From positions 1 to 64,000 of the forward strand of contig OY820905.2 of NCBI GenBank assembly GCA_963555755.3: DNA of 64,000 bases, given 5' to 3'. A model generated the notes under the pieces. It had not been told where the DNA came from, searched no databases, and saw only the letters and a program-made list of their open reading frames with translations. The number at the start of each line of letters is the position of its first letter. The stretch's first letter is position 1. Made by a program: the position numbers and the translations under genes. Source of the DNA: Nitrospirales bacterium. GTDB taxonomy: Bacteria; Nitrospirota; Nitrospiria; Nitrospirales; UBA8639. Shown in pieces: positions 957 through 36,885 of this stretch.

Positions 957-2090
957 AGAGGACTCAGGAGATAAAAACTTACCGGAAAATTATCCTGGAA
1001 AACGCCGTTGGGAGCGAAGAAGAGATGCAAGCTGTTGACAGGCGTAGGAAAATTTTATAACGCGTGCTCACCTCATGGGCGACGTGAGCTGGGGCCCGAT
1101 AAAATACTGATAGCGTACTATATGCATTTCAAAATAGGCATTTGAAAATTTTCCTGGCACACCAATGTTTGGGTGAGCGCTTGGTTGAGCCAAAGCATTT
1201 TCCAGAATCATAGCTCGCCACCATACCTATATCAGCTTGCAAATACAAAGCCTTTAGACCAAGCCCGTCCGTCCAGCCGGTTCAACGTGTCGCGAGGAAC
1301 TGAACTTCTCTAAACAAGCTTCTCTAAACAAAGATTAACTGGAATTACCCGCACCGGGCAATTAGTCTAATAACAATATAGTAATGGATCTATACCTTTG
1401 TTAGGCTTCGCCTTGAACATGCCGGGTTAAGCCCAACACTGAATCCAGGCATTAAATCACCAGTACGGAAACCCATTTCAGCCAAAAGCTGCATCGCATT
1501 ACCGAATGTCATCTCCATACCCCCATAGACAATAGCCAGAAACAAGCCGAAGTAACCCGAAAATTAGCCAAGTCAAAACGTAATCGGGAATAGGAATTTT
1601 AAAAGGCCTTTTTGCCTAAACCGGAAAGTATCAAAGACCCCGTTGCGGGGTCAATTTGCAGACGTTACCGTCTGAAAGGCGGGAGTTCCACGGCGAGATG
1701 GTGCGGCAGGGCCCATTTTTCCAGGATCGGGTCAGCCTGTCGTTCCATTGTGGTGTGGGAGTGGGGGAACTGGGCAAAGGGGGAGTGTCGGCTCCGACAC
1801 TGAACCGGAATCCTGGGGGAGCTTAGGCCGTTTGTAGGAACGGGTCGAGCCGGGCCGGGGCTCGTGGTGGAGCGCGGGTGGGCAAGCCCAGGTGCGCGAG
1901 AATCTTGGCAATCACGGTGGGATCTTCAATGGCGGCGAGGATGGTCAAAGGGCCGCCGCACTGTGGGCAGGTGGTAATGTCGATGGCGAAGACGCGTTTG
2001 AGTAATTGTGCCCAGCTCTTGCGGGCCCGCGTTGAGACCGAGGAGAGCTCGCTGTTTCCATCGGCGAGGTCCGTCGCCGGGTCCGGCCTC
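1..2090. repeat. Left arm of a large inverted duplication (partner ~34550..36638)
   Basis: Position x corresponds to 36639-x; ORF track shows mirrored ORFs with scattered differences. Confidence 0.95.
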
Positions 2091-2140
2091 GCCGGGCACG
2101 ATCTGGGAGCGCAGGGCCGCGTTGGGCGCCAGGACGCCAT
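1586..2140 (-). mobile_element. IS91/ISCR-like element remnant: transposase C-terminus plus oriIS end
   Basis: SWAQLLKRVFAIDITTCPQCGGPLTILAAIEDP..IAKILAHLGLPTRAPPRAPAR; end reads TTTTAAAATTCCTATTCCC on minus strand, like ISCR oriIS. Confidence 0.85.
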
Positions 2141-2998
2141 AGAAACACAGCTGGCGAACGTTCTCCCCATTCTCTTCCGGGTGCCTCCACCTTTGTCCCG
2201 AATCACATGGCTCGGGAACTCGCTCTGCTCAAACAGCCTCGCCAAAGCAGCCAATTCGATACAGAGGCTCCGCCGCGTCTGAAGGCGGGAAGAGAAGTGG
2301 AAAGGAGAACAGGCGGAAGTGCTGAATCGGCGAAACTCTCAACCCAGGATTTGACCGCATGCCGTCATCGGCGGTGTGTCTAGCGGGTTGAAGTCCCGCG
2401 AAAGGAGTTGTTCGTACACCTTTCTAGTACCGGGAAGCAGCGTCTGAGTAATCAGGGGTTGAAGTTTCCCATGGGCAAAGCCGCAGGCCGTAGCGCAAGC
2501 GAACCTAGATGTAGCCTCGTAAACGAATTGGAGATGCCGACCCTGTGGTCAGAAGGGGAAGGCCGCCGTTTGAGGGAGCAGAACGAACACCCACCCTCAG
2601 GATCTTCCGGGGTAGCAGGGATGGCATGTGGCGGAAGAGACACCGTGCAGGACGGGAGACCCGCGACGGTGCTGGCGCAGAACCAGCAACTGAGGCGTAT
2701 AAGGGATACCGAAATCGCTGCGGGCCGTCGTGGGAGTCGGAGGGGTTCATAGTACCGTTGGAGAGCCTGGGACAACACAACCCGGCCCGAGGGAAGGGAC
2801 CCTACTTTGTTCACGTTTCCGACGAGTGGAGGATCAGGGGATTGCCATTGCGCTAACCACCCCGAGCACGATCAGGACACTACAGAGGAAACTATCTCAG
2901 AAGGCCAAGTCTGAATTTGGCTATTGCTTGATGACAGACGCATGCCGCTGGAAGAAGAACATCGGAAAGCCGTGTATGGGAAAACCATACGCACGGAT

Positions 2999-4992
2999 GT
3001 GTGTCCAGGTAAGGCGAGACTGTTCAGTGGGAAGCAAGCCCACCAGGGTAAGAGCCTGAGCCCTGTAGCTTGGATGGCAGCGTGGAGAGAAACCGAGACG
3101 CTGAAGCCCATCGACAAAGCCATCGTAGAGGATGGTGAGCGAGTTCCCGGGCCGTAACGCAAGTGAACGCAGAGGTAGCCTCGAAAGTATGAAACCTCGG
3201 AGGTCGAGTCCCTGTCCGTAGGACGAAGACGGCATGGACAGGCGAACCAAGGCTGAGACGCCTGGCCACTCCGGCGGGGTGAGAGCGACAGCACGGGAGC
3301 AAGGACAGACGACGCAACTGGAGAAGCCCTCCTCGTCCCAGGGAGAAATCCCTGGAGGAAGATCGGCTCTATAACCAGCTCTCTGGGAAGTGAGCCGAAG
3401 ACGAGAGGGTGGCGGAGGGGCTCGTAGGAGCGAGGAAGCAGGGTCATGCCTGTGGAGCAAAGGAGCCCTACTGGCTGTAGGCTGTGATCAACATGGGAGG
3501 CAGGGACGAGATGACAACGGCGTCCATTACACTGCAAGACCTGCGACAGCGGCTCTACGTCAAGGCGAAGGCTGAGAAGCGATGGCGGGTGTGGGGCCTG
3601 TACGTCCACGTGTGCAAAGAGGCGACGCTACGCGCGGCCTATTCGATGGCCAAGAAAAACAACGGAGCCCCCGGCATTGATGGGGTGACGTTTGCTGGCA
3701 TCGAGGCCACGGGGGTGGAGCCCTTTCTTGCACGACTACGGGACGAACTGGTCACGCAGACCTACCGACCGATGCGGAACCGGCACGTGGAGATTTCGAA
3801 AGGCGGTGGACGAGTCCGCGTCTTAGGGATACCCGCGATTCGGGACCGCGTGGTACAGGGAGCGCTCAAGCTCCTGCTGGAACCGATCTTTGAGGCGGAT
3901 TTTCGTGATGGGTCGTATGGGTATCGACCGAAACGGACAGCCCACCAGGCGATTGGCCGGGTGGCTCAGGCGATGGTGCAGAACAAGACGCGAGTGATTG
4001 ATGTGGATCTGGCGGCCTTCTTCGACACGGTGCGGCATGACCGGCTGCTGGCGAAGGTGGCCCGACGCATCCAGGATCCCGCGATCCTGCGGCTGGTGAA
4101 ACTCATCGTCAAGGCGTCCGGCCCGCGTGGGGTGCCTCAAGGGGGTGTGATTTCCCCGCTGCTGGCCAACCTCTATCTCACGGAAGTGGATGAGAGGCTG
4201 GAGCAGCTGAAGGAGACAACCCGGCAGGGCCAGTATACGTATCTCGAGTATGTCCGGTTTGCGGATGACCTCGTCGTGTTAGTGGATGGCTATCGCCGCC
4301 ACGCACAACTGGCGCAGGTTGCGGAGCGGAAGCTGCGAGAGGCGTTGGCCCAATTAGACCTTCAGGTGAATGAGGAGAAGAGCCGAATCGTGGACCTGAG
4401 TCAGGGAGGCAGCTTCGGCTTTCTGGGCTTTGACTTTCGGCGTGTGCGGTCGCGGCGTGGAGTGTGGCGCCCGCAGTACATACCGAAGGTGAAGCGGCGC
4501 ACCGCGTTGCTGCGGAAGCTCAAGGAAGTGTTCCGACGCGGGCAATCCCAGCCGGTGGGACGGATGATCGCCATGATCAATCCGATCGTACGGGGCTGGG
4601 TGAACTACTTCCGGATTGGGCATGCGAGTCGGTGTTTCTCCTACGTGAAGGATTGGGTGGAGCGGAAGGTCCGGCGGCACATGATGCGAGTGCGCCACCG
4701 TCGAGGTTTTGGCTGGAAGAGGTGGAGTAAGGTTTGGCTCTACACGGTACTTGGCTTATATGGAGATTACCGAGTGCGGTACAACGGGTCGGCATGAAAG
4801 TCCTTCCAGGCTGATAGGTCACATAACCCTTGAGGTGAAGCATCCAGGAAAGCCCGGTGCTGGAAATCAGCACGCCGGGTTTGAGGTGGCGGGGACTGGA
4901 ACCGTGACCAGGGGAGTCGGACTGAGGCCCATTCCGAAAGGGGTGGAGGAGCCACCGAACCCTACCGTTGGCGCGCCAGTCCTCGACCCTAC
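2999..4992 (+). mobile_element. Group II intron B (class E-like), inserted at the 3' end of DV of intron A
   Basis: Starts GTGTG at 2999; own DV GAAAGCCCGGTGCTGGAAATCAGCACGCCGGGTT; ends CCCTAC at 4992; host DV/DVI rejoins seamlessly. Confidence 0.9.
3511..4797 (+). CDS. ltrA: Group II intron reverse transcriptase/maturase (no endonuclease domain)
   Basis: [37 protein letters not shown], maturase X domain RGWVNYF. Confidence 0.95.
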   Translation: MTTASITLQDLRQRLYVKAKAEKRWRVWGLYVHVCKEATLRAAYSMAKKNNGAPGIDGVTFAGIEATGVEPFLARLRDELVTQTYRPMRNRHVEISKGGGRVRVLGIPAIRDRVVQGALKLLLEPIFEADFRDGSYGYRPKRTAHQAIGRVAQAMVQNKTRVIDVDLAAFFDTVRHDRLLAKVARRIQDPAILRLVKLIVKASGPRGVPQGGVISPLLANLYLTEVDERLEQLKETTRQGQYTYLEYVRFADDLVVLVDGYRRHAQLAQVAERKLREALAQLDLQVNEEKSRIVDLSQGGSFGFLGFDFRRVRSRRGVWRPQYIPKVKRRTALLRKLKEVFRRGQSQPVGRMIAMINPIVRGWVNYFRIGHASRCFSYVKDWVERKVRRHMMRVRHRRGFGWKRWSKVWLYTVLGLYGDYRVRYNGSA

Positions 4993-6423
4993 TGATGAGG
5001 GGGCGCTGGGAAGTGCTGACTGCTATGGTCCGTGGTAGACGCGTGCGTCGAAGCGTTCGAGAGCAGCTCCATGTATGCACCAGTGCTCTACTCTACCCGT
5101 GACTTAATGCAATTACTCAGGCCTGACCGTTCGCAGTAACAGCAGTATGTCTAGCGGGTTAAAGTCCCGTCCAAGGAATTGTCCGTACACCTTGGTAGTA
5201 TGAGGAAGCGGCGTCGTGGTCACACGGGGTCGTAAGTTTCCACACAGCAAAAGAGCAGGCCGTCACGCAAGTGAACCGATGAGTAGCCTCGTAAACGAAG
5301 TGGAGACGCCGACCCTGTGGTCAGAAGGGGAAGGCCGGTGGAAGGGTGCTGGAATAACGGAAGTGGCATCCCTCGACTCCCGGGGTAGCAAGGACGGCAT
5401 GTTCTGGAAGACGTATCGCCCAGTGCTGGAGACCTGTTTTGGGGGTGGGGAGGCCACCGACCACTGTGTATAAGGCCACGAAATCACAGCGGCCCGGAAC
5501 GGGAGTCGGAGGGGTTCATCGTACCGCGTGAGGCCGAGGGACAACACAACCCCGGTCGAGGGAAGGAACCCTGCTGTGTTCATGCAACCGAAGAGCGGAG
5601 GATCAGGGGATTGCCATGGCGCTAACCACCCCGGAGACGATCAGGACGCTGCAGAGGAAGCTGTATGCCAAGGCCAAGCAAGAACCGGCCTATCGCTTGT
5701 ACGCCCTCTACGACAAGATCAGCCAGGAGGATATCCTCAATCATGCCTGGCGGCTTGTCCGAGCCAATCGAGGCAGCCCCGGTAGTGATGGGATCAGCTT
5801 CGAGGCCATAGAGAGTGGAATCGGGGTAGACACGTTTCTGCGGGAATTGCCCCGTGATCTGCAAGCCAAGACCTACCGAGCCCAACCGGTGCGACGCGTC
5901 ATGAGACTTAAAGCGGACGGCAGTTTCCGTCCGTTGGGGATCCCGACGATCCGAGACCGGGTGACGCAAATGGCCGTGAAACTCATCATCGAGCCGATCT
6001 TTGAAGCCGACTTCTGTACGAATTCGTACGGATTCCGGCCCAAGCGATCGGCCCATGATGCGGTGGACGACATTGCCAAGACGCTCTGGGCCGGCTACAC
6101 CCCAGTCATCGACGCCGACCTGTCGAACTACTTCGACAGTATCCCGCAGGCCAAACTGCTGGCCGTGGTCGCGGAGCGCATTGTGGATGGGGGCATCCTG
6201 CGCCTCATCAAGCAATGGCTCAAAGCCCCGGTGAGCGGCGACGACGCGAACGGCACCCGGAAGAGCGTAGGCGGCGGCAAAGCCAACCGCACGGGGACCC
6301 CGCAAGGTGGGGTGATCTCCCCGCTGCTGGCTAACTGCTCCTTGCACCTTCTGGATCGGACATGGCAACGGCGGCACCTCAAAGACAAACTGCAAGCGCA
6401 TCTCGTGCGCTACGCAGACGACT

Positions 6424-8292
6424 GTGCGCCACGAAGGCGCACAAAAGGACGTCAGTCCTTTGTGCAGCCATGCTGCACAAGAGATGAGGGGAGGCCCCTC
6501 GAAGTCGCTGTACAGGCGGAGGCTTCAAACCACCCATGGCTGCTGCCTTTAAGAGAGGTGGTGGTGAGCGCAATGGGAAAAGGCAGGGCAAGACCCTGTC
6601 AGGTATGGACCGTCGAGTCGAACGTGAGTGAACCGCTGAGGACGTGTCGAAAGCGTAGGGATGACGTCAAAACCGGGGGGGGATCGTTACTCCGGGAGGA
6701 ATCTGGCGGGCACCTGGTTACTGGCCAGATGGCGTCCGGCATGAAGGCGGCGAGAAGGCGGTCCAGGCTCTTGTGGAGAACGTGGGAACCTGTCACCCCG
6801 ATGCGAAGGGAGAAACGCAAGTGGAGGTCCCACAAGCGTGAGAGTACCGAGGCGGGGTACAGGGGCGGAGCAACTCGTAGTAGTGAAGAAGGTTCTGTAA
6901 TGGAGCTGGAGCGAAGGGGTTGCCTTATCGGGCTTGAGGGAAGAGAGCAACCAGCGATGGGAGGACTTTCGTGACTCAGGCCAAGCCATTTCCCATTACC
7001 CAACGTCAGGTGTGGGAAGCCTACAAACGAGTGAAAGCCAATCAGGGTGGGGCTGGGGTGGATGGCCAGACGGTGGCGGACTTTGAGCAGAGGTTGGACA
7101 ACAACCTCTATAAGCTCTGGAACCGGATGGCCTCTGGGAGTTATCGGCCCCTGCCGGTCAAGCGGGTGGAGATTCCCAAGGCAGGCGGCGGCAGCCGTCC
7201 GTTGGGGATCCCGACCGTGGCAGACCGGATTGCGCAAACAGTGGTCAAACAGGCCCTGGAACCGGAAGTGGAAGCCCACTTTCACCCGGATTCCTATGGC
7301 TACCGACCGGGGAAATCAGCGCATCAAGCGATTGGGCAGGCGCGCAGGCGGTGTTGGCGCTATGACTGGGTGGTGGACCTTGACATCAAAGGGTTCTTCG
7401 ACACCATCGACCATGACCGGCTGCTGGCCATGGTGCGTCGGCATACCCAAGCTACGTGGGTGCTGCTCTATATCGAGCGATGGTTGAAAGCTCCGGAGCA
7501 AGTGTTGGACGGGACGGTGCGGGAGCGGACCCGAGGCACGCCGCAAGGGGGTGTCGTCAGTCCGTTGCTGGCGAACCTGTTTCTGCATTATGTCTTCGAT
7601 GCGTGGATGAGGCGGTACTATCCGCACATCCCGTTTGAGCGGTATGCCGACGATGGGGTGTGTCACTGTCGCACCCGGAAACAGGCCGAACATCTGAAAG
7701 GGGCGTTAGCGCGGCGCTTTGCGGATTGGGGGCTTGAACTCCATTCGGAGAAGACCCAGATTGTATACTGCAAAGATGCCGATCGGCGTCTGGGGTATCC
7801 AATCACCGCCTTCGACTTCTTGGGCTACACGTTTCGCCCACGGCGGTCGAAGAACCGGTGGGGGAAATACTTCATCAACTTCAGTCCGGCCATCAGTAAT
7901 AAGGCGGGGAAGGCGATCCGCCAGGTCGTGCGGAGCTGGCAGCTCCATCTGCGGAGCGATAAAGCGCTCGACGATCTGGCGCGGATGTTCAATGCGAAGA
8001 TACGCGGGTGGGTGACCTATTACAGTGCCTTCTACCAATCGGCGTTGTACCGGTCCCTCCGGCACATCGATCGCAAACTTGTGCTGTGGGCCACTCGCAA
8101 GTTCAAGCGGCTGCGAGGCCACAAACGGCGAGCCGATCAGTGGTTGCGACGCATTGCGTGTCGGCAGCCCAATCTGTTTGCTCACTGGCGGTTGGTGTAT
8201 GGACAGGCTAGATAAGAAGAGCCGGATGAGCGGAGACGTTCACGTCCGGTTCTGTGAGCGCCTCGAGGGGTGGTTCCTCGGGGCGACTCGAC
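6424..8292 (+). mobile_element. Group II intron D (bacterial class D, RmInt1-like) inserted at the YADD motif of intron C RT
   Basis: GTGCG start at 6424; DV GAGCCGGATGAGCGGAGACGTTCACGTCCGGTTC; ends ACTCGAC at 8292. Confidence 0.92.
6971..8215 (+). CDS. ltrA: Group II intron RT/maturase, class D type, intact
   Basis: [55 protein letters not shown]. Confidence 0.95.
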
Positions 8293-8363
8293 TCGTCGTG
8301 ATGTGTCGAAAAGATGTAGAGGAACCGCTAAAGGTCGTGCGCCACGTACTGGACCAACTGGGC

Positions 8364-9693
8364 GGGCCTGTAAGATAAACTGTGTAACTGGTATCATGAC
8401 GGATCCATTGAATAAGGAGGACTGATGACCAGAGCCAAGACCCCAAGCAAAACCGATGTGCTGTTAGATGAGCTATTGGAAGGGTGTGCGTCACCCGAAG
8501 ACATATTCGGCACACATGGGCTGGTGAAGCGTCTCACGAAACGGCTCGTAGAACGCGCCCTGCGGGCAGAACTGACCGAGCATTTGGGCTATGCCCCTCA
8601 TGCCCCTGAGGGCCGTGGATCCGGCAATGCCCGCAATGGGAGCACGTCGAAAACGGTGCAAACGGCCCACGGGGATCTCCCGCTCCAGGTGCCCCGTGAT
8701 CGTCAAGGCCGCTTTGAGCCGCTGTTGGTGCCCAAACGCCAACGGCGCTTGGAAGGGTTTGATGAGAAGGTCCTGGCGTTGTATGCCCGAGGGCTGACGA
8801 CTCGCGACATTCAAGGGCATCTGGAAGAACTCTATGACGTGGAGGTGTCGCCCACGCTCATTTCGGCCATCACTGATGCGGTGTTGGAGGATGTGCGCAT
8901 CTGGCAGAGTCGGCCCTTAGATGCTGTGTATCCGATTCTGTACTTCGATTGTCTGTTTGTGAAGTCTCGGCAGGAGGGCGTCGTTAAGAATAAAGCCGTG
9001 TATGTGGCCTTAGGGGTGAATCTACAGGGCGAGAAAGAACTCCTGGGGCTCTGGATCAGTGAGACCGAAGGGGCCAAGTTCTGGCTGTCGATCTTCACCG
9101 AACTCCAGCAGCGCGGGGTCCGGGATTGTTTTGTGGCTTGCGTCGATGGGCTGGGGGGCTTGCCAGAAGCCTTGGAGACGGTGTTCCCACACACCCAGGT
9201 GCAACTGTGCATTGTGCATAAGGTACGGCAATCCTTGCGGTATGTGGTGTGGAAAGAGCGACGAGCCGTGGCGCGGGATCTGCGAGCCCTCTATGGCGCC
9301 GCGACGTTGTCGGAGGCGGAAAGCGCGTTGGAGACATTTGCCGCCAGGTGGGATGCGAAATATCCGACGATCAGTGCGACGTGGCGACGGCATTGGAGTC
9401 GGCTCACGATCTTTTTTGATTATCCCCCAGAAATCAGGAAAGCCATCTATACCACCAATGCGATCGAATCGGTGAATTTTTCGTTACGCAAAGTCCTGAA
9501 AAGTCGGGGAGCCTTTCCGACAGATGAATCAATTCTGAAGGTGCTGTATTTAGGGATGCAGCGGATTGCGAAGAAATGGACGATGCCCATTCCGCACTGG
9601 AAGCGGGCTCTCAACCAATTCGCCATGCTCTTAGGAGATCGAGTGCCAACAATCTAGCCCACAATTCAGTTACACAGTTAACTTGACAAGCCC
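8364..9693 (+). mobile_element. IS256-family element
   Basis: Imperfect 26-bp TIRs GGGCCTGTAAGATAAACTGTGTAACT / AGTTACACAGTTAACTTGACAAGCCC; no target duplication. Confidence 0.9.
8425..9657 (+). CDS. IS256 family transposase
   Basis: VPRDRQGRFEP, WQSRPLDAVYPILYFD, QLCIVH, IYTTNAIES. Confidence 0.95.
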   Translation: MTRAKTPSKTDVLLDELLEGCASPEDIFGTHGLVKRLTKRLVERALRAELTEHLGYAPHAPEGRGSGNARNGSTSKTVQTAHGDLPLQVPRDRQGRFEPLLVPKRQRRLEGFDEKVLALYARGLTTRDIQGHLEELYDVEVSPTLISAITDAVLEDVRIWQSRPLDAVYPILYFDCLFVKSRQEGVVKNKAVYVALGVNLQGEKELLGLWISETEGAKFWLSIFTELQQRGVRDCFVACVDGLGGLPEALETVFPHTQVQLCIVHKVRQSLRYVVWKERRAVARDLRALYGAATLSEAESALETFAARWDAKYPTISATWRRHWSRLTIFFDYPPEIRKAIYTTNAIESVNFSLRKVLKSRGAFPTDESILKVLYLGMQRIAKKWTMPIPHWKRALNQFAMLLGDRVPTI

Positions 9694-11267
9694 CCATTAA
9701 CACTGCAAGACCTGCGACAGCGGCTCTACGTCAAGGCGAAGGCTGAGAAGCGATGGCGGGTGTGGGGCCTATACGTCCACGTGTGCAAAGAGGCGACGCT
9801 CCGCGCGGCCTATGCGATGGCGAAGAAGAACAACGGGGCCCCCGGCATTGATGGGGTGACGTTTGTTGCCATCGAGGCCACGGGGGTGGAGCCCTTTCTT
9901 GCACGACTACGGGACGAACTGGTCACGCAGACCTACCGACCGATGCGGAACCGGCCCGTGGAGATTTCGAAAGGCGGTGGGCGAGTCCGCGTCTTAGGGA
10001 TACCCGCGATTCGGGACCGCGTGGTACAGGGAGCGCTCAAGCTCCTGCTGGAACCGATCTTTGAGGCGGATTTTCGTGATGGGTCGTATGGGTATCGACC
10101 GAAACGGACAGCCCACCAGGCGATTGGCCGGGTGGCTCAGGCGATGGTGCAGAACAAGACGCGAGTGATTGATGTGGATCTGGCGGCCTTCTTCGACACG
10201 GTGCGGCATGACCGGCTGCTGGCGAAGGTGGCCCGACGCATCCAGGATCCCGCGATCCTGCGGCTGGTGAAACTCATCGTCAAGGCGTCCGGCCCGCGTG
10301 GGGTGCCTCAAGGGGGCGTGATCTCTCCGCTGCTGGCCAACCTCTATCTCACGGAAGTGGATGAGATGCTGGAGCAGCTGAAGGAGACAACCCGGCAGGG
10401 CCAGTATACGTATCTCGAGTATGCCCGGTTTGCGGATGATCTCGTCGTGTTAGTGGATGGCTATCGCCGCCACGCCCGACTGGCGCAGGTCGCGGAGCGG
10501 AAGCTGCGGGAGGCGTTGGCCCAATTAGACCTTCAGGTGAATGAGGCGAAGAGCCGGATCGTGGACCTGAGTCAGGGAGGGAGCTTCGGGTTCTTGGGCT
10601 TTGACTTCCGGCGTGTGCGGTCGCGGCGTGGGGTGTGGCGCCCGCAGTACATACCGAAGGTGAAGCGGCGCACCGCGTTGCTGCGGAAGCTCAAGGCAGT
10701 GTTCCGACGCGGACAATCCCAGCCGGTGGGACGGATGATCGCGATGATCAATCCGATCGTACGGGGCTGGGTGAACGACTTTCGGATTGGGCATGCGAGT
10801 CGGTGTTTATCCTACGTGAAGGATTGGGTGGAGCGGAAGGTCCGGCGGCACATGATGCGAGTGCGCCACCGTCGAGGTTTTGGCTGGAAGAGGTGGAGTA
10901 AGGTTTGGCTCTACACGGTACTCGGCTTATATGGAGATTACCGAGTGCGGTACAACGGGTCGGCATGAAAGTCCTTCCAGGCTGAGAGGTCACATAACCC
11001 TTGAGGTGAAGCATCCAGGAAAGCCCGGTGCTGGAAATCAGCACGCCGGGTTTGAGGTGGCGGGGACTGGAACCGTGACCAGGGGAGTCGGATTGAGGCC
11101 CACTCTGAAAGGGGTGGAGGAGCCACCGACCCCTACCGTTGGCGCGCCAGTCCTCGACCCTACTGATGAGGGGGCGCTGGGAAGTGCTGACTGCTATGGT
11201 CCGTGGTAGACGCGTGCGTCGAAGCGTTCGAGAGTAGCTCCAGGTGAGCACCAGTGCTCTACTCTAC
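9694..11267 (+). mobile_element. Second, 5'-truncated copy of intron B (to 11163) followed by host DVI (to 11267)
   Basis: Near-identical to 3523..5096; RT ORF 9760..10968 lacks its start. Confidence 0.9.
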
Positions 11268-11563
11268 CCAAATTATAATTACTCAAAAGAAAAGGCCCAC
11301 TCGGCTTTTAGACCAAGTGAGCCTTCCCAAAAGGAGGATGAACCTGAGTTGAAGTCTCTCACGAATCCGGCGTGTTGTCTATTCCTCAAACGAGGGATCA
11401 CCGTATGGTCTACAAACACTTCGTCCTCTGAGTAATCTCTGGTTCTGTAGTCTACCCGCTTTCAACAACTTACCGTGTCACCCTACCTGAACTACCGTCA
11501 GACAATGTAACAATGTGTGCAAGGTGCCTTGTTTCACTATTGACAGGCGTGACGGTCCAACAC

Positions 11564-11845
11564 CTAAAGGGATGATTCCGTAAGCCGCCACCGAACTTCC
11601 TCTTCAGGCTGACCAGCTTCTTCCGCAGGCTCAACTTTGTCGTCTTTGTGAAGTAATCTCAGCATTTCCTGACAGGTATGATCCAACTCCACAGCCCCTA
11701 TGCTATGGAGCCCAGCTCGGCGAGCAATTTCTCGTTGAGGTACACCTTGGCCCCCAACACCAGCGTCAGGATGATTCCGAAGAACTTCTAACACGAGGTC
11801 CTTCAGTTGGCTGATGAGTTCTGTACCACGTTGATGAAGATTCAT
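11564..11845 (-). CDS. Hypothetical protein, possible winged-HTH
   Basis: 93-aa ORF with VPQREIARRAGL helix-turn-helix-like segment. Confidence 0.5.
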   Translation of the reverse strand: MNLHQRGTELISQLKDLVLEVLRNHPDAGVGGQGVPQREIARRAGLHSIGAVELDHTCQEMLRLLHKDDKVEPAEEAGQPEEEVRWRLTESSL

Positions 11846-12050: not shown

Positions 12051-13894
12051 CGGATCTTCCCCCCATGTTTTCACCCTAAGCTGTTGGAATCCTTTAGGAA
12101 AAAGGTAGATTGCTCGCTATAATGTAGGCATGTAATTATTGAATTTGCATTGCTATAATGCGAAATATATGCTACATATAAAGCATGTATATCGCCAGCG
12201 TCCCCAACCGCACGTCCCCGCCCGCCATTTTGTTGCGTGAAAGCTACCGGGAGGATGGCAAGGTCAAGACCCGGACCCTGGCCAATCTCACCTCATGGCC
12301 CCCGGTCCGTGTGGACGCGCTCAAGCGCTGCCTCTGCGGGGATTTCGATGGAACGGGAGACGATGAGGCCCCAGTCAGCGATCGGATCTTTGGCGTGCTC
12401 TTCGCCCTCAAAGCGCTGGCCCAGCGAGTCGGGATTGTCTCGGCCTTGGGGCAGAAGGCTGTCGCAACGCTCGCGCTATTTCTCGTGCTGGCACGGGTCG
12501 CCCACCAGGGCTCGCGGCTGTCGGCGGTGCGGTGGGCGGCCGACCATGCGGTGGCTGAAGTCCTGGGCCTGCCCGCCTTTGACGAGGATGACCTGTACGA
12601 GGCCTTAGACTGGTTGGCACCCAACAAGCAGCCATCGAGAAGAAACTGTATCGGGCCTCTGTCCAGCGGACCGGCCAGCCCCCGGTCTTGGTGCTCTATG
12701 ACGTGACCTCCTCCTATTTTGAGGGGGACAAGAATGAACTGGCCGCCTATGGGGATAACCGGGACGGCAAGAAACACAAGAAGCAGATTGTCATTGGCTT
12801 GCTGACAGGGCCGGATGGTGAGCCGCTGGCCGTCACGGTGTTCAAGGGGAATACGGCGGATCCCCGCACGGTCGCCGAGCAGATTGAACGGATCAAGACC
12901 CAGTTCAAGATCACCGACGTCGTGTGTGGGGGGGATCGGGGGATGGTGAAAGCCGCAGGCAAGGCGGCCCTCACCGAGCAGGGACTCAAGTACCTCACCG
13001 CCCTCACTGACCCGCAGATTCGCACCTTGCTGAAGAAAGATGTGCTCCAACTCAATTTGTTTGATGAGACGATACAGGAAGTGGAGGAAGGCGCTCGTCG
13101 GCTGATTCTGCGGCGGAACGAGGCGTTGCGCCACACGGTGGCCACGCGACGGCAGGACAAGGTGGCCACGCTGCAGCAGAAAGTCGCGGCGCGCAATGCG
13201 TTTGTCCAGACGGCCACGCGGGCCACCCCGGCGGCGGGACAGCGGCAGCTGACCCAGTGGGCCAAGAAGCACAAGCTCTCCACCTTCATCACGCTCGCCC
13301 TTCAGGATACTCAGCTCATAATCGAGATCGATGAGGCCAAGCAGGCCGATGCGGCCCTGTTGGATGGCTGCTCGGTGCTGGAGACGGATGTCGCCCGGGA
13401 GACGATGGAGCCCTCGACGGTGGATGCCCGGTACCGGGATCTGCAACGGGTGGAACGCGACTTCCGGACAATGAAGACGGGCTTGCTCGAACTGCGCCCC
13501 ATCTTTGTGCGGAAGGAGTGCCGCACCCGTGGTCATGTCTTCGCCTCGATGCTCGCCCTGAAAGTGGCACGGGAAGGCGAGCGAGGCCTGAAGGAGGCGT
13601 TTGGGACGACGGAGCAGAGTGCCCAGGCACTCACGCTCGATGATGCTCTGGCGGCCCTGTCACGGTTGTGTTTCCAACGCCAGGAGATCGGCGGGCAAGA
13701 GGTGCTGCAACTGGCTCGACCCGATGCCCGACAGGCGGCCATCTTTACCGCATTGGGGATCACCCCTCCCACCACCACACGGCCAGCCAAGGGGCACATG
13801 TAGGCAGAAGCGCGGCCACGCCAAGACCGTGACTTCTTCAATGACATCAAGAGGTTAGAGCCAAAAACTCGCCTAAAACTCGGGGGAAGATCCG
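12051..13894 (+). mobile_element. IS1634-family element with 5-bp TSD TCAGG
   Basis: TIRs CGGATCTTCCCCC / GGGGGAAGATCCG; TCAGG at 12046-12050 and 13895-13899. Confidence 0.9.
12185..13803 (+). pseudogene. IS1634 transposase, frameshifted near 12620
   Basis: LLRESYREDGKVKTRTLANLT (12185..12706) continues in another frame as LYDVTSSYFEG..NRDGK..DRGM..VERDFRTMK. Confidence 0.85.
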
Positions 13895-34524: not shown

Positions 34525-34549
34525 GTCTTTTGTTGACTAATACTTTTCC

Positions 34550-35053
34550 GAGGCCGCCCCGGTGCCGAACCTCGTCGATGGGAACAGCGAGCTCTCCTCG
34601 GTCTCCACGCGGGCCCGCATGAGCTGGGCGCAATTACTCAAGCGAATCTTCGCCATCGACATCACCACCTGTCCGCAGTGCGGCGGCCCTTTGACCATCC
34701 TCGCGGCTATTGAAGATCCCACCGTGATTGCCAAGATTCTCGCGCACCTGGGCTTGCCCACCCGCGCTCCACCACGAGCCCCGGCCCGGCTCGACCCGTT
34801 CCTACAAACGGCCTAAGCTCCCCCAGGATTCCGGTTCAGTGTCGGAGCCGACACTCCCCCTTTGCCCAGTTCCCCCACTCCCACACCACAATGGAACGAC
34901 AGGTTGACCCGATCCTGGGAAAATGGGCCCTGCCGCACCATCTCGCCGTGGAACTCCCGCCTTTCAGACGGTAACGTCTGCAAATTGACTCCGCAACGGG
35001 GTCTTTGATACTTTCCGGTTTAGGCAAAAAGGCCTTTTAAAATTCCTATTCCC
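34550..35053 (+). mobile_element. IS91/ISCR-like remnant with oriIS (right arm of the inverted duplication)
   Basis: Mirror of 1586..2090. Confidence 0.85.
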
Positions 35054-35682
35054 GATTACGTTTTGACTCGGCTAATTTTCGGGTTACTTCGGCTTGTTTC
35101 TGGCTATTGTCTATGGGGGTATGGAGATGACATTCGGTAATGCGATGCAGCTTTTGGCTGAAATGGGTTTCCGTACTGGTGATTTAATGCCTGGATTCAG
35201 TGTTGGGCTTAACCCGGCATGTTCAAGGCGAAGCCTAACAAAGGTATAGATCCATTACTATATTGTTATTAGACTAATTGCCCGGTGCGGGTAATTCCAG
35301 TTAATCTTTGTTTAGAGAAGCTTGTTTAGAGAAGTTCAGTTCCTCGCGACACGTTGAACCGGCTGGACGGACGGACTTGGTCTAAAGGCTTTGTATTTGC
35401 AAGCTGATATAGGTATGGTGGCGAGCCATGATTCTGGAAAATGCTTTGGCTCAACCAAGCGCTCACCCAAACATTGGTGTGCCAGGAAAATTTTCAAATG
35501 CCTATTTTGAAATGCATATAGTACGCTATCAGTATTTTATCGGGCCCCAGCTCACGTCGCCCATGAGGTGAGCACGAGTTATAAAATTTTCCTACGCCTG
35601 TCAACAGCTTGCATCTCTTCTTCGCTCCCAACGGCGTTTTTCAGGATAATTTTCCGGTAAGTTTTTATCTCCTGAGTCCTCT

Positions 35683-36885
35683 ATGCCTTCACATCAAACG
35701 ACTGCTTTACCTGTTATTAGTTTAAAGCCCAAATCCGATCGTCGAATTAAACATGGCCATTGCTGGGTCTACAGTAATGAGATCGATATTGAGCGAAGTG
35801 GCTTTAAATCGATGGCCGCAGGCCAGGTGGGAACATTGCTCAATGCCAACCAGGAAGTGTTGGGGAGCGCTTACTTCAATCCCCCCACACTTCTGTGTGG
35901 CCGTTTGTTTAGTCGAAAAGCAGGCCAGGCGCTGGATTACCCGTTCATAGGCAAGCGACTGGAGTTGGCGTTGAAGTGGCGAGAATCCTGTTATAAAGAG
36001 CCTTTTTATCGGCTGGTGTATGGCGACGGGGATGCTCTGCCCGGCCTGGTTGTAGACCGATATGGCGATGTGTTGGTCATGCAGGTGACTACGGCTGGAA
36101 TGATGGCGGTGCTCGATATCCTGGTGAGCGCACTGGTCGATGTGGTTGCTCCAGCGGGGATTTTGTTGCGCAATGAAAACGACAATGAACCGGAAGGCCT
36201 GGTATCGCGTACCGAAGTTGTTCACGGTGAAGTGCCAGAGTATGTCGATATTATCGAAAACGAGACGACTTTTAAGGTCCCGGTTATGGGTGGTCAAAAA
36301 ACCGGTTGGTTTTACGATCATCGGGAGAGTCGCTCGCTGCTGGCCAGTTACGCTAGGGACAAACGTGTATTGGATGTCTACAGCTATCTGGGGGCTTGGG
36401 GTTTACAGGCGCTTCGTGGTGGAGCGGCATCGCTGTGCTGCGTTGACAGTTCCGGGCCCGCGCTAAGCCTGGCCAGCGAGTCCGCAGCGAAGGCGGGATT
36501 TGAAAAGCAATTTACGGCGCTAAAATCACCGGCAATCGACGCATTAAAAGCACTGCAGAAGCGCGGTGAAAAGTTTGATGTGGTTGTTCTCGATCCGCCG
36601 GCTTTTATCAAGCATCGCAAGGACCAGCGCAGCGGTGAAAAAGCCTATCATCACATTAACCAGCTAGCGTTAAAACTGCTGGACCAGCAGGGCTTGTTAG
36701 TCAGCGCCTCTTGCTCTCTGCACTTGCAGCGCGATGCGTTGACAAGGATAGTGCAGACTGCGGGATACAAGGCGGGCCGCAGTACATCGATAGTGTATCA
36801 AGGTGGGCTGGGCGCAGACCATCCAGTCAATGCGGCGATGCCAGAAATGGACTATCTAAAAGCGGTGTTTGCGCGAATCGATTGA
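35683..36885 (+). CDS. RlmI-like class I SAM-dependent rRNA methyltransferase
   Basis: GHCWVYSNEI PUA domain, DALPGLVVDRYG, GQKTGWFYDHR, LDPPAF, SASCS. Confidence 0.9.
   Translation: MPSHQTTALPVISLKPKSDRRIKHGHCWVYSNEIDIERSGFKSMAAGQVGTLLNANQEVLGSAYFNPPTLLCGRLFSRKAGQALDYPFIGKRLELALKWRESCYKEPFYRLVYGDGDALPGLVVDRYGDVLVMQVTTAGMMAVLDILVSALVDVVAPAGILLRNENDNEPEGLVSRTEVVHGEVPEYVDIIENETTFKVPVMGGQKTGWFYDHRESRSLLASYARDKRVLDVYSYLGAWGLQALRGGAASLCCVDSSGPALSLASESAAKAGFEKQFTALKSPAIDALKALQKRGEKFDVVVLDPPAFIKHRKDQRSGEKAYHHINQLALKLLDQQGLLVSASCSLHLQRDALTRIVQTAGYKAGRSTSIVYQGGLGADHPVNAAMPEMDYLKAVFARID

Follow-up and report, generated by a model that had tools for sequence, protein, structure and literature searches.

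Group II introns that reside within other group II introns are well documented, and bacterial and archaeal twintrons, nesting five introns deep and homing into the YADD codons of a reverse transcriptase (RT) are all already known (PMC4424553, PMC2882425, PMC4649490, PMC2504315). In Methanosarcina acetivorans, up to five introns are nested without coding exons and form a perpetual homing site (PMC4424553, PMC2882425). The introns M.a.I5, UA.I3, P.l.I2 and B.th.I3 of B. thuringiensis ATCC 35646 target RYADD and form twintrons (PMC2504315), and in the TeI3/TeI4 twintrons of Thermosynechococcus elongatus near-identical inner introns lie in diverged outer introns (PMC2882425). The Euglena psbF twintron has a group II intron in domain V (DV) of another (PMC8393795), and B.t.I4 is found in domain 6 of B.t.I3 (Toro 2013, Table S1). 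The class F g2 introns have a FADD motif, a length of about 1990 nt, a protein of about 430 aa and no endonuclease domain (PMC3552965). Here we describe a 9-kb cluster of nested group II introns from a Nitrospirales bacterium, located in what we call the window, the first 64 kb of its 4.6-Mb genome of two contigs (contig OY820905.2, positions 1 to 64,000). Within this cluster one intron, B, is inserted at the DV end of its host intron A, and another, D, directly after the YADD codons of its host intron C.

Organisation of the intron cluster

We consider it likely that selfish group II introns have piled up in this cluster, with B entering at the DV end of its host and D just after the YADD of its host, by likely site-specific retrohoming in both cases. 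Its right half is broken, likely through a deletion associated with an insertion sequence (IS) of the IS256 family. The architecture put forward in the original prediction, A[B] - C[D] - IS256 - B'+DVI, was borne out with some corrections by Rfam models and by BLAST against the genome. Models of domain I (DI) match at 2390-2622 (A), 3025-3162 (B), 5161-5395 (C) and 6486-6604 (D), and models of DV and domain VI (DVI) match at 8217-8292 and 11019-11136, with a further match at 4848-4965 that is below the gathering score. The cluster contains four RT frames and one IS256 transposase, all on the + strand, and the open reading frames (ORFs) and models place all intron units on this strand as well, as had been claimed. 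The three RT lineages that had been proposed were recovered both in the pairwise identities (33-43%) and in a tree of the RTs. The features are given below, where EBS and IBS stand for exon-binding and intron-binding site.

1823..2254, - strand: remnant of an ISCR/IS91-like transposase in the upstream context (NCBIfam NF052416, E 1.9e-15, far below cutoff)
2351..2356, + strand: IBS1 of A (TTGACC), in a dispersed TGACCCC-type repeat that is the target of the A/C family
2357..2998, + strand: 5' part of intron A, ORF-less, class F, with DI-DIV and DV to its next-to-last base (RF02005)
2547-2552 and about 2847-2929, + strand: EBS1 and RT remnant of A
2999..4992, + strand: intact intron B of class F/g2 (1994 nt), inserted within the final base pair of the DV of A
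3187-3191, 3214-3219, 3511-4797 and about 4849-4882: EBS2, EBS1, RT/maturase ORF (FADD) and DV of B, which also has a long DVI
4993..5096, + strand: 3' part of intron A, the last DV base and a long DVI ending in AC (rejoined fold, conserved 3' end)
5097..5128, + strand: 32-nt spacer ending in IBS1 of C (CTGACC, 5123-5128)
5129..6423, + strand: 5' part of intron C, class F, with EBS1 at 5319-5324 and an RT ORF from 5616 to the YADD codons (RF02005, TIGR04416)
6424..8292, + strand: intron D, intact, class D, 1869 nt, at YADD+1 of C (RF01999, RF00029, three identical copies)
6653-6658, 6682-6687, 6971-8215 and 8217-8292: EBS2, EBS1, ORF and DV-DVI of D
8293..8363, + strand: 71-nt remnant of the C RT past D, cut by IS256
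8364..9693, + strand: IS256-family element with its transposase at 8425-9657, 27-bp terminal inverted repeats and no target duplication
9694..11163, + strand: B', an older 5'-truncated copy of B (97.2%), without the 5' ribozyme and the RT start
11164..11267, + strand: host DVI of the A/C family, after B'

The predicted junctions 2998|4993 and 6423|8293 are exact, since the ends of B and D are identical in every genome copy. When B and D are removed, the flanks rejoin to DV-DVI and to the codons Y-A-D-D-F, respectively. The proposed cluster boundary at 2340 had to be given up; A starts at 2357 and C at 5129, in each case 16-17 nt upstream of the apparent GUGUG. For B, the site in the host DV was correct but required refinement. 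Its insertion falls within the final base pair of this DV and leaves the hairpin upstream, which means that only DVI is displaced, by 2 kb. D was correctly placed at the host YADD, and is found one base past the YADD codons of C. A little further downstream of the cluster, at 12185-13803, an IS1634-family transposase is divided between two frames. An inverted second copy of the window start (1-2091, repeated at 34549-36638), with 288 nt from the contig end, lies at about 34.5-36.9 kb (98.7%). The intron cluster is situated between the two copies, which may be a real duplication or arise from assembly.

Targeting of DV ends and YADD codons

Both B and D have a GUGYG 5' end, an AY 3' end, DI-DVI, a catalytic DV and a bulged A in DVI, and their RT/maturase ORFs match TIGR04416 above cutoff (358 and 444 bits, respectively) together with Pfam RVT_1 and GIIM. 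In an unrooted tree of 76 RTs, made by a quick method and without two frameshifted rows and L066/L067, B groups with B.th.I3 of pBMB67, the sole g2 reference in the tree, at a Shimodaira-Hasegawa-like approximate likelihood ratio test (SH-aLRT) value of 100 and with 49% identity. This B.th.I3 is not the YADD-homing B.th.I3 of ATCC 35646. The RT5 motif of B is YVRFADD, i.e. FADD, and no endonuclease domain was detected in Pfam.

BLAST recovered 13 full-length copies of B in the genome. Fourteen B 5' ends were available, of which 11 lie directly at a host DV, two follow another B and one is at a non-intron site, which shows a perfect EBS1 match. Expressed as insertion sites, 11 of 12 are DV ends, where B separates the final base of the DV 3' strand from the one before it. 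At the window site, EBS1 (GUCCGU) and EBS2 (GUAUG) of B are complementary to the 3' strand of A's DV at 6/6 and 5/5 positions. B's own DV pairs worse with these EBS than the host DV does, and no guest was present in any of B's own DV ends listed in the haplotype comparison. The EBS1 allele GACCGU is found solely at CGGTT sites (3/3), and among the nine non-tandem copies with the allele GUCCGU seven are at CGGAT or CGGAC and two at CGGTT, with two tandem copies in addition. The EBS alleles of B track the host DV variants. B occupies the DV end of all seven ORF-less A copies and of two of the four full-length-A type (9/11 for the A type in total), compared with 1/5 for the C type, 1/5 for other introns and 0/3 for class D, and this distribution over host types agrees with EBS pairing to the host DV end.

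Where two A hosts are identical (three pairs), the B haplotypes inside them differ at many positions in two pairs and at one position in the third, which favours independent invasions of these hosts. At G000:C1 2160017-2165998, three head-to-tail B copies with differing haplotypes are found in the DV of one ORF-less A. These tandem copies would fit re-insertion at an already occupied site, which has been shown for EcKTE56.groEL (PMC12584367).

D groups with the class D references Sh.dy.I1 and D152 at a support of 100, and is 59% identical to D152. Its three identical copies in the genome are all at YADD+1, in three different host RT lineages, and the relatives found among 150 genomes of the phylum are at YADD+1 too (3/3). 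With a class D intron of a Bacillus pseudofirmus plasmid that is also at YADD, this gives 7/7 introns examined, so that D homologues are not found mostly at non-intron targets, an outcome that would have spoken against the original prediction. EBS1 (GAUCGU) and EBS2 (GCGUAG) of D match the YADD codons; as judged by eye, EBS1 pairs at 5/6 positions at the window site and 6/6 at another copy, and EBS2 is complementary. D's own YADD context fits its EBS worse than that of the host. From its site, size and class D placement we take D to be a new member of the published YADD-homing type. L093 (NC_013792.1 49900-52200) is the D152 of Toro Table S1, where it is listed without a host gene; it interrupts another RT right after YADD.

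The surroundings contain ISCR, IS256 and IS1634 remnants and about half of the B relatives lie outside DV, as might be expected if mobile elements had accumulated by chance in a hotspot, without any targeting of introns as such. However, 11/12 sites of B and 3/3 of D hit one and the same base within a conserved motif, and the EBS loops match these sites and covary with them. For B and D, chance is ruled out by this EBS/IBS covariation, and as an explanation of the cluster as a whole we find it scarcely credible, although it is a fair account of how A and C came to lie side by side. The proposals that two distinct intron-targeting strategies are at work, and that the guests are parasites of parasites, have held up, in that EBS1 and EBS2 of B fit the DV end, those of D fit the YADD codons, and both guest sites recur within and beyond this genome.

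Relatives of B in other genomes were drawn from the best 80 loci, with one genome per species; 55 had a defined 5' end and at least 36 nt of flank and 25 were left out. The closest named relative among these 80 loci is from a Nitrospirales metagenome-assembled genome. Judged by base pairing in the flank, with a rule that is satisfied at 0.6% of other positions, 28 of the 55 are located at the end of a host DV, in 21 genomes of several phyla. Rfam scans of 18 of the 27 non-DV relatives placed four in other intron domains (L016, L022, L030, L033). The expectation that B homologues occur at intron targets was thus upheld for the 28 at DV and these four more, and not for the rest, which are mostly elsewhere. 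Retargeted relatives were noted near the DI 5' end at L015 (by flank likeness) and at L016, L022 and L030 (by Rfam), and in the DIII/DIV region at L033. In 55 of 57 B-like introns, at least 4 of 5 EBS1 positions can pair with the flank. The mean is 4.79, against a shuffled control for these 57 rows with a mean of 2.92 and a maximum of 3.33. In the non-DV rows alone the values are 4.66 and 2.36 (shuffled), and since pairing is equally kept in these rows retargeting occurs by EBS change. The intron's own DV pairs worse with EBS1 than the host site does in 17 of the 19 DV-targeting rows with an extractable DV (3.5 vs 5.7 of 6). Since the non-DV relatives share the divergent own DV, the poor pairing may simply characterise the lineage, without having been selected as immunity. 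The DV-targeting rows are spread over basal and derived clades of the unrooted RT tree.

Two further loci touch on this site. L028 is a B relative with the EBS1 AACGG at the end of a B-family-looking DV, a possible parasite of hyperparasites. At L151, a different intron starts one base after the B-type site, just past the DV of a C-family intron.

The distribution of hosts could also be read as mutualism, in which B supplies maturase/RT to the ORF-less A, or A[B] moves as a unit, and the pairing is kept by host rescue. B is in 7/7 ORF-less A copies compared with 2/4 DV ends of the full-length-A type. An RT lies within 2.2 kb upstream in just 4 of the 28 DV hosts, and among 18 scanned of the remaining 24, a DI model of the host matches 567-751 nt upstream in 12, which makes these hosts ORF-less (9 genomes). 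The junction between an ORF-less A and B is also present in two further Nitrospirota genomes, L001 (with an A that is 85% identical) and G156, and of 67 DV ends of RT-bearing C-family introns in metagenomes just one has a guest. However, this last figure is biased, since short metagenome contigs break at repeats, and the preference for A is largely explained by the EBS match alone. Furthermore, a full-length A with its own RT exists in this genome, identical A hosts bear different B haplotypes, and B is also found in RT-bearing hosts and at one non-intron site. We therefore consider a mutualistic composite to be unlikely.

A more tentative extension of the selfish pile-up is that a widespread g2 lineage of hyperparasites may have been programmed against the nearly universal DV 3' end as such. 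The divergent own DV would then provide self-avoidance, EBS1 would be retuned to CGGTT, CGGAT, CGGAA, CGGGT or CCGTT, and the lineage would live mainly in farmed ORF-less hosts to which it may supply RT, DV being a reliable enough target to be used by an IS1/IS1595-like transposon as well (4/4). We regard this extension as possible, though doubtful in its entirety.

The transposon in question is an 1860-bp element with 24-bp terminal inverted repeats and a Zn-ribbon protein of 587-610 aa, which has a weak IS1/IS1595 match (NF033558, E 2e-7, below cutoff). It is found at a group II DV loop in 4/4 copies, in both orientations and with a short target duplication.

G000:C1 775533-777392: copy of the 1860-bp element (L189)
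G000:C1 1024326-1026939: copy of the 1860-bp element (L192)
G000:C1 1251116-1252975: copy of the 1860-bp element (L194)
G000:C1 3058591-3060450: copy of the 1860-bp element (L195)

None of three relatives of this element (48-49% identity) is in DV, no DV-targeting transposon was found in 100 family genomes, and no description of a DV-targeting IS was found in the literature searched.

Host introns, the broken right half and splicing

The A and C introns lack the canonical GUGYG 5' end. A starts with GCATG and C with GTTCG, and most relatives start with GTTCG, GTATG or GTACG. All A and C copies in the genome share the 16-17 nt upstream of the apparent GUGUG, and the 5' end was fixed from the flanks of the copies and from EBS1 pairing. 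Among 79 metagenome relatives of C, 36 combined this 5' end with a readable EBS1, 14 showed the end without a match to the EBS1 pattern, and the others had no matched 5' end. EBS1 pairs with the six bases before the corrected end at a mean of 5.9/6 positions, with five or more pairs in 34 of the 36 C relatives, compared with a mean of 1.9 in C relatives for the six bases before the apparent GUGUG. Compensatory EBS1-IBS1 pairs were found among the C relatives, for example CTGTCC with GGACAG in eight cases. We read the start of A as a variant 5' end, and not as a failure to be an intron. The insertion target of the A/C family is a dispersed TGACC|CC motif, and a 12-nt pattern of it matches 150 times in the genome. 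The TGACCCC-type repeat (window 2340-2356 and 5110-5128) often forms short tandem runs and is found near ISCR remnants; it is the A/C-family target in other phyla too (L078, L079), and similar motifs flank L052 and L077.

Without B, intron A is 746 nt long, an ORF-deleted derivative of a 1972-nt full-length intron to which it is 93% identical outside the deletion. In the fold DI-DVI are complete, with DV and DVI present and a G-A mismatch at the triad G. The claim that the host is ORF-less was confirmed by this deletion relative to the full-length copy, which is shared by all seven ORF-less A copies; these have the same 642-nt 5' part but different flanks, and so represent seven loci. Full-length A copies with their own RT are also present in this genome, together with four other C copies that are 92-96% identical to the C of the window. 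The RTs of full-length A and of C end after domain X, judged by length, and are 47-49% identical to that of the g3 intron Ni.ha.I1, with which they share a node of 91, drawn open in a tree that was without a g4 reference. Sequence and folds give DV loops of 5 nt, GAAAA in A and GAAAU in B, and a 5-nt DV loop is described for class F introns (PMC3753933). Class g1 was considered for A and C, as the g1 5' end has been reported to be undefined (PMC8919778), and was ruled out by the RT tree. At G000:C1 796872-802706, a full-length A-family intron holds both D (at YADD) and B (at DV), and would represent the undeleted version of the double invasion in the window.

The right half is incomplete. C stops 71 nt past D, and B' begins about 530 nt into B. 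Over 69 nt the C remnant (8293..8363) is 100% identical to a C copy at 1.25 Mb whose RT is intact, the outer intron of C[D] has its RT C-terminus and DV deleted at IS256, and B' lacks DI to most of DIV. The C of the window has three private amino-acid changes, and B' has 11 substitutions beyond the lost start; both would be dead remnants. The IS256 transposase scores 410 bits with NF033543, above the NCBIfam cutoff, and matches PF00872. Elements of the IS256 family usually generate an 8-9 bp target duplication. The flanks of the window copy differ, i.e. there is no target duplication, while another copy has a short one, and since this is a sign of an adjacent deletion it is likely that the right half was broken by an IS256-linked deletion. 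A near-identical IS256 (99.85%) adjoins the 5' half of a B at 1.25 Mb, and a rearrangement via this second element is possible. An inversion joining B' with that 5' half fits the IS256 positions, but 16 nt separate the two halves and a duplication is lacking.

The last DVI, like that of C's closest copy, is of the A type. It may represent the 3' end of C itself, and the right half would then be C[D, deletion, B'], but its owner is uncertain. Candidates are the C of the window, the C copy at 1.25 Mb and an A-type copy. A 9-mer common to the 5' flank of C and the final 3' flank is a weak sign for the window C, since 8 of 182 non-cognate flank pairs also share at least 9 nt (one of them trivially). 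By identity, we infer that D and the main-allele B are newest, that A is older and that C and B' are oldest.

Contigs of four runs, two metatranscriptomes and two unlabelled, were compared with positions 2000-11700. No contig displayed from these runs spans the IS256 junctions, the parts of the right half are all multicopy, the IS256 has no target duplication and its near-identical copy at 1.25 Mb adjoins a B 5' half. A misassembly that joined repeats, without any true deletion, could produce the same picture. However, the B' haplotype is unique in the genome (97-98% to all other B copies), the window C carries private changes and the assembly is in just two contigs, so that we consider misassembly highly improbable.

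The original prediction also envisaged a functional ordered splicing cascade over five intron units. All units are on one strand, nested guests must exit before their hosts can work, sequential twintron splicing has been shown in Trichodesmium (PMC4649490), and the cluster region is present in two metatranscriptome libraries. Against this, the truncations (C without its RT C-terminus and DV, B' without its 5' ribozyme) already weaken such a reading, no host gene spans or flanks the cluster, the private amino-acid changes are in the window C and B', and every unit recurs elsewhere in other combinations. The RNA-library contigs cross unspliced A|B and B|A junctions, which may originate from other copies or from DNA; contigs at C|D with just 26 nt on one side were left out as bridging, and no spliced joint was seen in contigs. 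An intron-free site was found neither in 31 genomes nor in a further set of seven. We consider a cascade over the whole locus very unlikely. The cluster itself is for the most part debris that is unlikely to regulate a host gene, and A[B] and D are the only units that, by their sequence, can still work. For A[B] alone, in which B separates A's DV from its last base and from DVI, an obligatory two-step order with B out before A can soundly be inferred.

We therefore propose that the selfish pile-up arose as follows. Reverse splicing of group II introns is guided by EBS/IBS pairing, and trans-acting RTs serve ORF-less introns. Both are also stated for described systems (PMC12584367, PMC4424553). 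B and D would reverse-splice into DV ends and YADD sites without an endonuclease. B would splice first from the shared transcript, rejoining A's DV and DVI, and the RT encoded by full-length A copies would then act in trans to move the ORF-less A. Each new A copy would be a fresh landing pad to be filled by B. The order of B before A would then be a mechanical need of A[B], and not a regulated programme. The multi-copy spread of the units with exact ends is indirect evidence that they are, or were, active in splicing and retrohoming.

Several points weigh against this proposal. Of the 55 B relatives, 27 are off DV ends, so that targeting within this family is labile. Copies of B that had undergone gene conversion could look like independent insertions, and it is from the 93% RNA identity that the full-length A RT is assumed to act in trans. 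The owner of the last DVI is uncertain, and the IS256 junctions come from the assembly. Finally, no contig of the four runs skips B (2998|4993) or D (6423|8293) to give the spliced joints that had been predicted, although contigs cannot show absence.

Comparison with known systems

For an intron that targets the DV end, nearly every other group II intron, of whatever class, offers a place to land, so that one such parasite can tax a whole community of retroelements. Two EBS alleles together with two host DV variants in one genome would provide a natural test system for host-parasite coevolution inside a ribozyme. The corrected 5' ends of A and C also mend a mis-annotation that is easily made. 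ORF-less bacterial introns have been called rare (PMC4424553), and with 12 of 18 scanned hosts being ORF-less they may be undercounted; by its own account, one pipeline misses the outer introns of twintrons (PMC8919778).

D resembles the M.a.I5-type introns, as far as these are described, in its site, class D placement, length of about 1.8 kb and lack of an endonuclease, and in having IBS1/IBS2 in the RYADD codons; nothing essential differs. As in M. acetivorans, there has been repeated site-specific homing into other introns, but the described homing there is into intron ORFs, whereas here a second lineage homes to the DV end of the ribozyme. The likeness to TeI3/TeI4 lies in ORF-less introns that stem from one ORF deletion and are moved by a related RT. 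In that system, however, the ORF-less intron is the guest and sits between two ATGs in DIV, while in the present cluster the ORF-less intron serves as host and is entered at its DV end. The Euglena psbF twintron and B.t.I4 are single cases that their descriptions do not present as a site-targeting lineage, and B.t.I4 is of class D and in DVI. B shares the FADD motif, length and lack of an endonuclease domain with the g2 introns, but the g2 members in Table S2 have transposase, hypothetical-protein or non-coding hosts, with no DV targeting (PMC3552965).

No description of a bacterial lineage homing to DV ends was found in the literature, within a partial coverage that has key intron surveys outside it. 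The abstract of Simon et al. from 2008 reportedly mentions specialized lineages, and the DV site may be in print there. What the present locus appears to add to these systems is that the EBS alleles of B track host DV variants, that its own DV pairs poorly with its EBS and that its hosts are often ORF-less. Its value therefore lies in the DV-end targeting by B, the allele tracking and the ORF-less hosts, and not in a 9-kb cascade.

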